Counted from the stretch's first letter, positions 46,084-49,468 are shown. The stretch: DNA of 64,000 nt from an archaeon (GCA_018696395.1 JABHQR010000017.1:39094-103093); one strand, 5' to 3'. Made by a program: numbers and translations. Notes: generated by a model from the sequence alone, not told the origin.

Positions 46084-47352
46084 TTATTTTATCTTTTTCA
46101 CAACTTCTTTAACACTGATCTCAAACTGATCTCCACTTTTCATGTCACGTAGTAAAACTTTTTCTTCATCCAATTCACGTTTACCAACTATGATCACGTA
46201 AGGGATACCTAAACTGTTAGCATATTTTAAATTTTTACTAATGTTACGGTCTAACAAATCAACAGCAGCATTTATGTTTTGAGATCTCAATTCTTGAACA
46301 ATACCTAAAGATTCATCTAATGTTTTGATTGGGATGACGTAAACTTTAGTTAAAGATTTTTGTGAGAATTCTTCTTTCTTTTTCAAACATTCAATTATTG
46401 GAACTATTCCAAACGAAACCCCTACTGCTGGAACAATAGAATTTTTTCCTAAAAAACTTCCAATCATATTGTCCCATCTTCCACCAGCAGCTAAAGAAGA
46501 TTTTAAACTTCCATCTTTAACAAAAACTTCATAGACTGGACCAGTATAATATGCTAATCCTCTGGCAAGAGACACATCAAAAACAATAGAATAAACATTC
46601 ATTTTGTCTAAATAACCAAACACTTCTTCCAATTCAGAAATCCCTTTTAGGGTTTCTTCTGAAGTGACTTTCTTTTTCAATTCAGATAAACTTATTCCTG
46701 GTTTAACTAACTTAAACAACTTTTCTGAACTTTTTATTTTTCTTTCTTTGAATTCAGCAATAACACCCTCTTGTCCTATTTTATCTAGTTTGTCAATTGC
46801 AATAATGGCTTCTTCTTTTTTTTTAATTCCACATTCATCAAGAATTCCATTCAAAATTCTTCTGTTGTTAAGTTTAATCTTTACATCTAAACCAATTTTT
46901 TTGAAAGCACTGTCCGCAGCACTTAATATCTCTGCTTCAGCTAGCATTGAACTAGTTCCAATAGTATCGATATCACATTGTAAGAATTGTCTGACTCTTC
47001 CGGTTCTAATTGGTCCATCTCTAAAAACTGAACCCATTTCATATCTTTTGAATGGCATTGGTAATTGCGGATTCATCCCCACAAACCTAGCTAAAGGGAC
47101 AGTTAAATCAAATCTAAGCCCTAAGTTACGTTTACCTTGATCTTTAAGTTTGAAAGTTTCTTTCAATGCATCGGAAGCTTCACCTGCTGTAAATTTTGCT
47201 GATAAAGTTTCTAATCTTTCAATGATCGGTGTTTCTAATGGTGAAAAACCATATTGTTCAAATGTTTCTTTCAAATCTTGAACTATTTTATTTTGAATAA
47301 TTTTTTCTTCAGGAATAATGTCTTGTATCCCTTTTGCAGTTTGTAATTTCAT
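46084..47352 (-). CDS. hisS: Histidine--tRNA ligase
   Basis: AKG.QD, ETP..E, LRFDLTVPLAR, FRDGP...GR.RQF.QCD.D, RGLAYYTG, GGRWD and AVGVSFG. Confidence 0.95.
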   Translation of the reverse strand: MKLQTAKGIQDIIPEEKIIQNKIVQDLKETFEQYGFSPLETPIIERLETLSAKFTAGEASDALKETFKLKDQGKRNLGLRFDLTVPLARFVGMNPQLPMPFKRYEMGSVFRDGPIRTGRVRQFLQCDIDTIGTSSMLAEAEILSAADSAFKKIGLDVKIKLNNRRILNGILDECGIKKKEEAIIAIDKLDKIGQEGVIAEFKERKIKSSEKLFKLVKPGISLSELKKKVTSEETLKGISELEEVFGYLDKMNVYSIVFDVSLARGLAYYTGPVYEVFVKDGSLKSSLAAGGRWDNMIGSFLGKNSIVPAVGVSFGIVPIIECLKKKEEFSQKSLTKVYVIPIKTLDESLGIVQELRSQNINAAVDLLDRNISKNLKYANSLGIPYVIIVGKRELDEEKVLLRDMKSGDQFEISVKEVVKKIK

Positions 47353-48122
47353 CTTGATATGTCCTCTTGGTTATCATTAATAGTTTTTGATATATAAGTT
47401 TTGCTAGCCTCAAATAAACTTTCTCTAACACATGCTTGTGCTAAGATCTTAGTTGTATCTAACAATTCTAATTCAGTATCATCTTTTTGTAAAATTAAAG
47501 GTAGGTCAGTGCACCCTAATATGATCGCTTCTGCGCCTTTATTTTGTAGGTCTAAACTGATCTCAATTAATTTTACTTTATCACTTAATGTTTTTTTACC
47601 ACTTAAAATTTTCATAATCACTGATGTTATTTCTGTTTGTTGTTTTTTATTAGGATAAATTATTTCAACATTTAATAATTTACTCTCTGTGTTATAAACT
47701 TTGGATCTAATAGTATTCTCTGTAGATAATAATCCTACTTTTTTGTAACATCTCTTTTTAGCTTCAAGAATTGTTTCTTTTTGGATACTTAATATCTCAA
47801 TGTTTAAAACTTCTCTTATTTTTGGCAAATATTTTTGAACAGTATTGCAAGCTACCACCATGAAATTAGCTCCAGCAGATTCAATTTTTTTAGCACCCTC
47901 TTGAAGTAGTTTTATCAAAATTTCTTCATTAAATTGATTTTCAACTACATCTGGGATAGGTGAGCTGTAAATAAAAAAAGGAGGAAAATCCTTGTCGTAT
48001 TTAGCGTTAAATTTTTTCTGAAATATTTTGACAATTTCCAGATATAAACTAGCAGTTGCTTCTGGTCCCATCCCTCCTAATATCCCTACTGTTTTGAATT
48101 TATTATTGTATTTATCTTCCAT
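47349..48122 (-). CDS. Aspartate/glutamate racemase family protein
   Basis: GILGGMGP.AT, ACNT and ILGCTDLP (both catalytic Cys). Overlaps hisS by ATGA. Confidence 0.88.
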   Translation of the reverse strand: MEDKYNNKFKTVGILGGMGPEATASLYLEIVKIFQKKFNAKYDKDFPPFFIYSSPIPDVVENQFNEEILIKLLQEGAKKIESAGANFMVVACNTVQKYLPKIREVLNIEILSIQKETILEAKKRCYKKVGLLSTENTIRSKVYNTESKLLNVEIIYPNKKQQTEITSVIMKILSGKKTLSDKVKLIEISLDLQNKGAEAIILGCTDLPLILQKDDTELELLDTTKILAQACVRESLFEASKTYISKTINDNQEDISR

Positions 48123-49032
48123 TTTTCTTTCCTCTAATTTGTTCTTTTTTTCCTTCTAATTGTTTAGATATTCTTCTAAGAAATCCTGTTAATGTTTCAA
48201 TTTTGCCATCATCATATCTTCCTTTGAATGGTTCACAAATAGAATCTAAATACTCTGCTAATTCAGGATTAAACTTTAACACTTTTTTTATTGTCCGATA
48301 AGTGCTTTTACTTCCTAATGGTCTACCCTCTTTAATTCCTAGATAAACTGGTCTGTCAATTCCTGGTGTGATTTTACACCTTAATGTAGAATATCCTAGT
48401 TCTAGCTGTTCAAACATTTCTTCAATAGCAATGTCAAAGAATTGTTCTGAAATTGGACCAAACTTAGTTTTAATTCCTTTTGTTTCTTCAAGGTAAATTG
48501 CTTCAGCAATCTCTAGTGGCAAGTAAAGTCTAGTTGCAGGATTTGGGGTTCTGTTAAAATAAATTTTTCTAACTAAATTTGGGTTGTCTTTTTCTAAGAA
48601 TTTTATGAAATCTAATGATTTTTCTAACGCTTCAGTATATCTCTCATCTTTTCTGAATACATCCCAGGAATTTAAGTAACTGACATCAATGTTCAGAATT
48701 TCAATAAATTTTCTAAAATACTGTTCTCTTAATTGACAATTTGTTCTGTATTTTCCAATTTCTGTTTTTGGGGATATTATGTTTGGACTTCTTTCTTGTT
48801 CTTTAATTAAACATTCAATTACTTGTTTACCAGAGGGATCTTTGCTTAGGATAGAATAAGTCTCTCTAGGTGCGAATCTATTAATTTTGTTAACAATGGA
48901 ATAACAACTTGCATCCCAAATTAAAACTTCTTCTGTTCCTAGTTTTAAGAATTTATTGAACCAAGAAAAATAGTCCAACATTTCTAATCTTTCTCCATTA
49001 CAATAAAGTTGTGGGTTATATCCAAAACCCAT
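48112..49032 (-). CDS. Hypothetical protein, possibly CDPS/class I aaRS-like Rossmann fold
   Basis: Order of motifs GFGYN / ERL...W..F / VLIWD / S..V...Y / LYLPLEIAE parallels cyclodipeptide synthases. The catalytic Ser is not seen. Confidence 0.35.
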   Translation of the reverse strand: MGFGYNPQLYCNGERLEMLDYFSWFNKFLKLGTEEVLIWDASCYSIVNKINRFAPRETYSILSKDPSGKQVIECLIKEQERSPNIISPKTEIGKYRTNCQLREQYFRKFIEILNIDVSYLNSWDVFRKDERYTEALEKSLDFIKFLEKDNPNLVRKIYFNRTPNPATRLYLPLEIAEAIYLEETKGIKTKFGPISEQFFDIAIEEMFEQLELGYSTLRCKITPGIDRPVYLGIKEGRPLGSKSTYRTIKKVLKFNPELAEYLDSICEPFKGRYDDGKIETLTGFLRRISKQLEGKKEQIRGKKNGR

Positions 49033-49093
49033 AAATATCTTTTTTGGGAAAGATTCTTCACAGTATTTATTTCTAGTAAAATCTAAGTTAAGA

Positions 49094-49165
49094 TTAACAG
49101 TGAATACAATCAGTGCCTTGCACCTTAGCCTCTAGTTTTTTCCTTTTTTTTGTTTCGTATGTCAT
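49094..49165 (-). CDS. Candidate 23-aa peptide MTYETKKRKKLEAKVQGTDCIHC
   Basis: Hand-translated ATG-to-TAA ORF ending in the 16-bp repeat. Confidence 0.3.
   Translation of the reverse strand: MTYETKKRKKLEAKVQGTDCIHC
49097..49112 (+). repeat. 16-bp direct repeat copy 1 (ACAGTGAATACAATCA)
   Basis: Exact match to 49396-49411. Confidence 0.9.
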
Positions 49166-49224
49166 TTTATTTTTTCTCCCATGTTTATAGTCTCTTTGAC
49201 TTTTTCATTTTTTTGATGTTTGAG

Positions 49225-49297
49225 GGCCATAGGCGGGAATTGAACCCGCACCATCAGATCCACAGTCTAATATGCTAACCATTACACTACTATAGCC
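49225..49297 (-). tRNA. tRNA-His (GTG), AT-rich divergent copy, encoded G-1
   Basis: GGCTATAG...TTAGA-CTGTGGA-TCTGA...GCGGG-TTCAATT-CCCGC-CTATGGCC folds into a full cloverleaf. Confidence 0.9.
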
Positions 49298-49389
49298 ATG
49301 AAAAGAAATTGTAACAATGAGTGGAGCTTACGCTCTATAAATGATAGTGTTTAGAATTTAACTTTTTAGATTTAAAATTAGTAGAAACT

Positions 49390-49431
49390 TCACTGACAGT
49401 GAATACAATCAACTCTGGTTTGTGTTATCAT
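49390..49431 (-). CDS. Candidate 13-aa peptide MITQTRVDCIHCQ
   Basis: ATG lies 23 nt after a TATA box, in leaderless position, and the ORF ends in the 16-bp repeat. Confidence 0.3.
   Translation of the reverse strand: MITQTRVDCIHCQ
49396..49411 (+). repeat. 16-bp direct repeat copy 2 (ACAGTGAATACAATCA)
   Basis: Exact match to 49097-49112. Confidence 0.9.
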
Positions 49432-49453
49432 ATTAAATATTAAAATGTTAAAC

Positions 49454-49468
49454 TATTTAAACTTTTCG
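49454..49468 (-). promoter_or_regulatory. BRE + TATA promoter upstream of mini-ORF/tRNA-His
   Basis: Minus strand reads CGAAAAG-TTTAAATA. Confidence 0.6.

Follow-up and report, generated by a model that had tools for sequence, protein, structure and literature searches.

A 64,000-nucleotide stretch of archaeal DNA (GCA_018696395.1, JABHQR010000017.1:39094-103093; hereafter the window) carries on its minus strand, between positions 46084 and 49468, a group of genes that our analysis modestly favors reading as an operon of DPANN archaea of the Woesearchaeales type that responds to histidine or His-tRNAHis, its expression probably involving programmed +1 frameshifting. The group comprises a tRNA-His gene and three protein genes, which encode a 306-residue protein that we call X306, an Asp/Glu-family racemase and a histidyl-tRNA synthetase (HisRS). 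What the sequences show is the order of these genes and its conservation, the loss from X306 of the signatures of both aminoacyl-tRNA synthetases (aaRS) and cyclodipeptide synthases (CDPS), the layout of the start of X306 in two frames, and the His codons at the junction of those frames and in the leaders upstream. The predicted fold of X306, in turn, resembles those of tyrosyl- and tryptophanyl-tRNA synthetases (TyrRS and TrpRS).

The operon is ordered promoter, leader open reading frame (ORF), tRNA-His, X306, racemase and HisRS. Its putative promoter, read from the sequence (49454-49468, minus strand like the whole operon), pairs a B recognition element (BRE) and a TATA-like element: the purine-rich CGAAAAG stands on the 5' side of a TTTAAATA box at 49461-49454, about 23 nt ahead of the leader ATG, and about 10 other loci have TTTAAATA or ATTAAATA some 25 nt upstream of the ATG of their homologous leaders. 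Downstream follow leader A, a leaderless mini-ORF of 13 codons ending ...RVDCIHCQ* (49390-49431); a tRNA-His(GUG) gene (49224-49296) with G-1 encoded at 49297 and C73; and the annotated ORFs of X306 (48112-49032, 306 aa), the racemase (47349-48122, 257 aa) and the class II HisRS (46084-47352, 422 aa). X306 and the racemase overlap by 11 nt, and the racemase and HisRS share a 4-nt start/stop overlap. A second, GC-richer tRNA-His(GUG) gene lies outside the operon beside a tRNA-Gly gene (50495-50567, minus strand); it is about 70% identical to the linked one, and the two are the only tRNA-His genes of a genome of 1.38 Mb, 98.9% complete, with 29% GC. A preliminary description of this DNA had reported the minus-strand arrangement behind one BRE/TATA element, the overlaps of the coding sequences and an extra, operon-linked tRNA-His, and all of these were recovered. 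It had also allowed that hisS might simply be the housekeeping copy, which a count of copies bears out: HisRS matches TIGR00442 with 361 bits against a cut-off of 287, and the genome holds no other match above cut-off.

Homologous loci, 15 from species-representative genomes and 23 from metagenomes, were compared with the window (L numbers denote loci and G numbers genomes). Thirty-four loci extend far enough downstream to show the gene after X306, and in 32 of them it is the racemase; HisRS follows the racemase in 13 loci. Of 39 loci, 21 have a tRNA gene directly upstream of the X306 homologue; its type is tRNA-His(GUG) without exception, and it often has one or two introns, which ARAGORN overlooks. 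With a distant family member as the query, the X306 gene was detected in 10 of 401 sampled genomes of the phylum, all ten belonging to the same order as the window genome; the racemase adjoins it in nine, the tenth being a partial match, and in two of the ten lies upstream instead of downstream. Gene order is shuffled in L069 and L074 with the linkage kept, and L068, from a divergent and longer subfamily, keeps the order tRNA-His, X306-like gene, racemase, HisRS intact. Because the arrangement occurs in about 30 distinct loci it is far beyond chance, and the persistence of the linkage through rearrangement, at identities of about 30-40%, speaks for a functional connection. The neighborhood to which the preliminary description drew attention therefore extends well beyond the window, racemases, HisRS and tRNA-His adjoining the homologues elsewhere. 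Two tRNA-His genes are present in each of G000 (the window genome) and G002; in G004 the linked tRNA-His is the only one among roughly 20 tRNAs detected.

Some of the linked tRNA-His genes are unusual in themselves. Non-canonical introns, uncalled by standard tools, interrupt those at L008:548-670, L013:5600-5765 and L006:5711-5810; two lie in the L008 gene, including one in the T-loop region, and one lies in the T-arm of the L013 gene. The linked tRNA-His at L036:3740-3810 has C for U at position 33, giving the anticodon loop UCGUGAC.

The annotated start of X306 (49032) is probably not its true start; coding appears to run to about 49101 and, with a switch of frame, to 49165. Upstream of the annotated ATG the X306 frame stays open over a stretch of 23-30 residues (..VF[IT].GLD..[KR]N.Y....P..LF-MGFGYNP) that is conserved as protein, as Ser codon switches between TCN and AGC illustrate. 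In the window this adds a 23-residue N-terminal extension to the annotated ORF, making a +1-frame body at 48112-49101. Most loci have no ATG, GTG or TTG in the +1 frame upstream of the annotated start (among them WIN, that is the window, and L006, L008, L013, L014, L018, L025, L036, L037 and L039). The upstream part is covered by ORF B (49094-49165), an ATG-started zero frame of 23 codons that lies in the -1 register relative to the X306 frame and whose ATG is preceded by GGGAG. Of 24 loci, 23 have a Shine-Dalgarno (SD)-like motif of the GGAGG type ahead of the ORF-B ATG, and one has such a motif ahead of the annotated ATG. ORF B is likewise conserved as protein, an example being the cgt/aga switch of an Arg codon between L013 and L018. 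Over the 11 codons before the proposed site of the frame change, stop codons occur in the ORF-B frame in none of 24 loci and in the other two frames in 13 and 18 of them; over the 11 codons after it, the +1 frame has stops in none of 24 and the other frames in 19 and 22.

The overlap of ORF B with the +1 frame always contains a His codon in the ORF-B frame, which NUU precedes in 30 of 36 loci. The heptamer that we propose as the shift site in the window is AUU-CAC-U (49099-49105), with an Ile P-site and a His A-site codon. The Phe codon read across this site in the +1 frame is TTC in 22 of 22 distinct loci, in genes that prefer TTT; from the genes' own codon usage this invariance has a P of about 1e-14 if the loci are taken as independent, and since they are related such P values overstate the evidence. 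A five-pair hairpin, GGUGC-AAG-GCACU (49112-49124), ends 6 nt 5' of the P-site codon; in 14 loci of one subgroup 95.7% of its cells are paired and three of the five pairs show compensatory changes, a covariation score reached by none of 500 shuffles. In L016 and L038 the N-terminal part and the body are encoded in one frame, co-linear across the junction with the conceptual fusion, and in L026 and L027 the ORF-B part is about 150 aa long. The AlphaFold model places the +1-frame extension at a pLDDT (predicted local distance difference test) of 94-96, where it lengthens strand 1; with it the match to TyrRS rises from Z 16.3 to 18.8 and from 234 to 260 aligned residues, and the point in the chain at which the match starts moves from residue 40 to residue 7. 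The hairpin, the one-frame lineage, the long ORF-B part and the better match of the extended model all favor one protein translated from both frames. The pattern in the sequences is most simply explained by programmed +1 ribosomal frameshifting, which we believe likely. Slippage from NUU to UUC would give a G34 tRNA a G-C pair at the third position. Transcriptional slippage was rejected, the site having no homopolymer, and so was assembly error, as the junction recurs in more than 20 independent assemblies. At L023:394-511 and L024:3893-4001 the ORF-B/+1 layout is kept with CGG or CGT, not NUU, before the His codon; the shift site in these two loci may lie elsewhere or work differently.

It could instead be that no frameshift takes place, ORF B and leader A being independent regulatory upstream ORFs and X306 starting non-canonically or nearby in its own frame, or at 49032. 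Such an arrangement would accommodate the +1-frame start codons found at the motif (ATG in L012 and L017, GTG in L019, and an ATG or GTG in L068), the N-extended proteins beginning M-LVVF that gene callers give for several homologues, and the presence of the cassette ahead of an unrelated gene in L080, as expected of a portable regulatory leader. We nevertheless consider it unlikely: the window and nine other loci lack a canonical +1-frame start, no SD precedes 49032, in L009 and L019 no start codon stands at 'M1', the extension is conserved as protein and modelled as part of the fold, and an in-frame orthologue is co-linear with the fused product.

The proposed shift motif occurs twice in the operon. 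A 16-bp repeat brackets the tRNA-His gene (49411-49396 and 49112-49097); its copy B is the gene junction just described, and copy A lies within leader A, with the heptamer AUU-CAC-U at 49404-49398. A third match to GGTTGTATTCAT in the genome is isolated, in the 58987 region of the plus strand, and probably due to chance. The leader peptide, M..(T)RVDC[ILPR]HC.., is conserved in at least 12 loci. Beyond its His codon the +1 frame is open and ends in His codons; in the window this continuation has 21 codons (49335-49400, ...KHYHL*) and stops 39 nt before tRNA-His. Tails of the HH(H)[LR] type end the +1 frame before tRNA-His in the window, L006 (..NHHR), L010 (..NNHHL*), L025, L036 and L045, and in L008, L024, L033 and the X306-less L080 the frame traverses the tRNA gene and ends HHH(F)*. 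Loci of the L005 type have no shift motif, and their unshifted leader, ...SIFSHHHL*, is homologous to the +1 product. An attenuator after leader A was rejected, the hairpins of the window and L006 being unshared with z about 0.

Standard resources place X306 in no known family. It matches no Pfam-A family at E<=0.01 and nothing in NCBIfam, single-sequence and profile searches of PDB sequences gave no match, and hhalign found no signal between the family and the genome's own TyrRS and TrpRS. Nothing of use came from the ESM Atlas, which models the protein poorly (best feature score 0.75). A word-based search returned 29 relatives and an exhaustive profile search of 1.8 billion representatives 94; those with names are Woesearchaeota hypothetical proteins and one distant Peregrinibacteria protein. 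A search for longer, fused forms found none. The AlphaFold model (AF2, from the family alignment) has a pLDDT of 90.8 and a predicted template modelling score (pTM) of 0.89. In Foldseek 58 matches reach E<=1e-3, and the matches listed (E<=7.2e-4) are all TyrRS. An exhaustive structural scan with the 306-aa model gave Z 16.3 for TyrRS and 14.5 for TrpRS over residues 1-296, Z 9.3-11.8 for CDPS over residues 1-224 only, and Z 9.2 for PvcA. With the extended model, which includes the +1-frame N-terminal part, TyrRS reached the Z of 18.8 given above and CDPS 10.0-13.1, TrpRS scoring about 14-16 across the two models; the TyrRS and TrpRS alignments run to residue 323, C-terminal helices included, and those of CDPS end at about 224-247. 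A genome-wide PF00579 search found canonical TyrRS and TrpRS elsewhere and one weak, borderline third match on contig C16, and did not recover X306.

On these models X306 represents a new class-Ic aaRS-like family and not a CDPS: it is a full-length class-Ic synthetase look-alike with a C-terminal helical domain, not a CDPS-sized single domain. The preliminary description had called the protein CDPS-like. Foldseek and the structural scan of the 306-aa model uphold the kinship of its fold with class I aaRS and CDPS; membership of the CDPS does not stand, given that Pfam yields no CDPS match, that Gly occupies the Ser position and that a TyrRS-type C-terminal domain is kept. LYLPLE is present, as that description had noted, in the form Y170-x3-E174, and the serine of GxSxxN is absent; in a register inferred from sequence, its place is taken by Gly (GFGYNP) in all 29 members of the X306 subfamily. 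Y170 and E174 are invariant in this subfamily but not in the wider family, and Y-x3-E does not discriminate CDPS, because the same helix of TyrRS carries Y..Q..D. Again in inferred registers, HIGH is replaced by GER(L), with no His at the helix N-terminus, and KMSKS by (R/K)(K/R)P.YL, the loop after strand 5 reading (D/P)R(K)P.YL. With both motifs replaced, ATP-dependent activation by X306 is unlikely. Its invariant or near-invariant residues are mostly polar or acidic (E14, D40, N48, R102, E177 and E196), and YLPLEIAE, FGP..EQ and WDAS may correspond to the Y..Q..D helix, the GG.DQ motif and the AD motif of TyrRS. As these apparent counterparts of the amino-acid- and ribose-binding motifs are kept, X306 probably has an amino acid or an aminoacyl-adenosine end as its ligand, and histidine, tRNA-His or His-tRNAHis is plausible in this role.

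Distant members of the family (P0085-P0112) are longer, at 370-480 aa. They read YKGVSYNP, with Ser at the CDPS-serine register; at the N-terminus they carry a domain of about 100 aa and at the C-terminus the motif GW...FPPG.C. One of them comes from Peregrinibacteria, of the candidate phyla radiation (CPR), and one has an AbrB/MazE domain.

The 257-aa protein matches PF01177 (125 bits) and TIGR00035 (164 bits) above cut-off, and its nearest solved relative is the aspartate racemase (AspR) of P. horikoshii (1JFL, E 1e-35). Both catalytic Cys are kept, in CNT and GCT motifs that align to Cys82 and Cys194 of 1JFL. All linked racemases have V and L at the sites of R48 and K164 in P. horikoshii AspR, residues that we take, on an assumption for which we found no literature source, to bind the Asp side chain; this is only a hint that the substrate differs from aspartate. 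A second Asp/Glu-family paralogue, 37% identical, lies off the operon in the window genome (G000:C21:12406-13083). Racemases 40-50% identical to the window's occur in genomes that have no X306 by the family profile, where they adjoin HisRS, often behind tRNA-His. At one such locus (L083:1014-3015) a SLOG-cluster4 protein, HisG and HisI (PRA-CH) stand between tRNA-His and the racemase; in L083 a VapBC-like toxin-antitoxin pair also lies between the racemase and HisRS. At another (L080:2006-3001) the X306 slot holds a radical-SAM-like gene of 331 aa (Pfam E 9e-4, below cut-off) that is preceded by the same leader (…CDCIHC*, with +1 …SHHH*) and the same ORF-B/+1 cassette and that keeps X306-like first codons, MSFGVNTN. 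This sequence suggests that a gene body was swapped downstream of a portable regulatory cassette. Since the X306-less loci keep the rest, the conserved core is leader, tRNA-His, racemase and HisRS, with X306 one of several cargos. A genome search found neither HisD nor HisG in the window genome, which must therefore import histidine. X306 and the racemase probably act together in supplying histidine or His-tRNA.

The preliminary description had envisaged a His-tRNA-consuming biosynthetic unit, and one form of that idea makes X306 a CDPS-like, aminoacyl-tRNA-dependent transferase that passes His from a dedicated, HisRS-charged His-tRNAHis to an acceptor such as a racemase-made D-amino acid, yielding a peptide or a surface modification. 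A class-Ic aaRS fold that, like that of CDPS, lacks the ATP motifs would suit such an enzyme, as would the invariant Y-x3-E of the X306 subfamily, the tight coupling of X306 to the racemase and tRNA-His, the two different tRNA-His genes of the window genome and G002, and the GVSYNP of distant members, which puts Ser in the CDPS-serine register. We find it improbable all the same. Every X306-type member has Gly at that position, Pfam gives no CDPS match, TyrRS and TrpRS outscore CDPS and do so over the full length, and in G004 the linked tRNA-His may not be an extra copy. Control by His codons, moreover, would turn on a consumer of His-tRNA during a shortage of it, and HisG and HisI occupy the same slot in sister loci. 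A consuming unit in general fits poorly with expression that apparently depends on His codons in the leader and at the junction; with the core kept in X306-less loci, one of them with His-biosynthesis cargo, the system resembles a response to His-tRNA shortage rather than a drain.

X306 might alternatively be a catalytically inert aaRS partner in the manner of HisZ, binding histidine or uncharged tRNA-His and regulating or scaffolding the racemase, HisRS or both. HIGH and KMSKS are lost, the stop/start overlap with the racemase suggests a co-translated complex, X306 is never found without the racemase (the racemase is known without X306), and HisZ provides a precedent. This, too, we regard as doubtful, for N48, R102, E177 and E196 are invariant and E14 and D40 near-invariant across 17-40% identity, and these conserved polar residues line aaRS active-site positions, more as in a working site. 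The failure to find fused forms also speaks, weakly, against such a partner.

We favor a model in which the operon responds to histidine or His-tRNAHis through the frame of translation. Translation of X306 would start at the SD-preceded ATG at 49165 and enter the annotated ORF by a +1 shift at 49105-49099, in which the P-site tRNA lets go of NUU and pairs with UUC before the A-site His codon is decoded. Scarcity of charged tRNA-His would raise shifting, by analogy with the hungry codons of Ty1 and prfB, and more shifting would yield more X306 and then, through the overlapping stop and start codons, more racemase and HisRS. The leader has the same heptamer and a +1 frame with His codons at its end, and it too is probably sensitive to this signal. 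Taken further, and held only tentatively, this would make the cassette a portable His-tRNAHis sensor of the Woesearchaeales, in which two NUU-CAY +1 sites, one in the leader and one in the first protein gene, tune tRNA-His, HisRS and a variable cargo to the level of charged tRNA-His, and X306 is a TyrRS-fold enzyme without ATP motifs that, in concert with a racemase of substrates other than aspartate, acts on histidine or tRNA-His.

Several points weigh against the model of a His-responsive operon. The analysis is wholly computational, drawing on sequence and predicted structures, and the response of shifting to His-tRNA is argued by analogy with Ty1 and prfB. The NUU-CAY heptamer is missing in 6 of 36 loci. 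Direct initiation is possible where a canonical +1-frame start exists, as it does at the motif in L012, L017 and L019 and further upstream in L005, L007, L009 and L010. No conserved terminator or antiterminator hairpin follows the leader in 13 leader-proximal segments (z -1.0 to +1.3). The matches to TyrRS motifs rest on register and predicted secondary structure, not on residue superposition. X306 is rare, as the 10 of 401 genomes indicate, and closely related racemases occur without it, so that X306 is accessory and its link to histidine one of association.

Other features of the window concern its RNA genes. An Rfam search found tRNAs and 5S rRNA only, and no T-box or riboswitch. Intron-bearing tRNAs at 50804-50926 and 53617-53735, both on the plus strand, score 52.9 and 57.8 bits in Rfam and were missed by ARAGORN at default settings; with its intron option on, ARAGORN called only 32 tRNAs genome-wide, so that many tRNAs of this genome probably bear introns. 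A 5S rRNA gene lies at 40790-40904 (minus strand), and one is also found a few kb from the X306 homologue in L006, which hints at wider conserved synteny.

A 2021 review counts a single demonstrated frameshift in Archaea, a -1 (PMC8211752), and our literature search found no paper on the X306 family or the cassette. Should the change of frame prove genuine, Archaea would have their first conserved case of programmed +1 frameshifting, in genes whose starts gene callers systematically misplace. It would also be the first instance of a sense codon for one amino acid gating an operon that contains the cognate synthetase and tRNA, an archaeal counterpart that combines prfB autoregulation, his-leader attenuation and T-box control; a reporter of 140 nt makes amino-acid sensing in archaeal translation directly testable. 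X306 itself would add a class-Ic synthetase-like family, absent from Pfam and NCBIfam and always tied to a racemase, to the aaRS paralogues, broadening them past CDPS, GluQRS, MshC and HisZ.

Among known proteins, X306 is most like TyrRS and TrpRS (PF00579), with which its model shares the whole-length fold, including the N-terminal segment and a C-terminal helical domain of the anticodon-binding type; the best match of the extended model, at Z 18.8 over 260 aligned residues, is to A. pernix TyrRS. It differs from them in having no detectable sequence similarity and in the replacement of HIGH and KMSKS. CDPS use two aminoacyl-tRNAs to make a diketopiperazine and consist of a single domain of about 200-250 aa without an anticodon-binding domain; in AlbC the catalytic Ser37 lies in G-x-S-x-x-N after strand 1, and Y178 and E182 form the catalytic pair. 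X306 resembles AlbC, YvmC and Rv2275 in its class-Ic Rossmann domain without HIGH or KMSKS (Z 11.8-13.1) and, less distinctively, in Y-x3-E, but the structural match spans only its first roughly 225-245 residues, the extra C-terminal domain lying beyond. It also has Gly for the catalytic Ser and lacks a Pfam CDPS match, and whereas CDPS genes have tailoring enzymes for neighbors, X306 has a racemase, HisRS and tRNA-His. HisZ, a dead paralogue of HisRS that regulates HisG, is similar in being an aaRS paralogue without aminoacylation motifs that is wired into histidine physiology. HisZ, however, is of class II and partners HisG, whereas X306 is of class I, partners the racemase and HisRS, and is encoded in a genome without HisG.

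The regulatory layout recalls hisL leaders and T-box control of hisS. As in those systems, a short leader ORF upstream of histidine-related genes ends in consecutive His codons (...SHHHL*, ...SHHH*, ...NHHR* and ...KHYHL* being among the ends seen), and the logic would be that of sensing charged tRNA-His. Here, however, there are no alternative terminator and antiterminator hairpins, and no T-box or other Rfam element was found; the leader is leaderless, stands upstream of a tRNA gene into which its frame sometimes reads through, and only by way of a +1 shift does its translation arrive at the run of His codons. The closer parallel at the level of the ribosome is with prfB (RF2) and the CUU-AGG-C hungry codon of Ty1. 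All have a short, well-started zero-frame ORF followed by a +1 main ORF, an NUU in the P site that can re-pair one base on, and a slow codon in the A site, the regulated item being what decodes it; in the present case the cognate factor would be the HisRS and tRNA-His of the same operon. In contrast to prfB and Ty1, the A-site codon in this archaeal host is a sense codon for His, each operon has two such sites, one in its leader and one in its gene, and stimulation seems to come from a small 5' hairpin, not from an SD next to the site.

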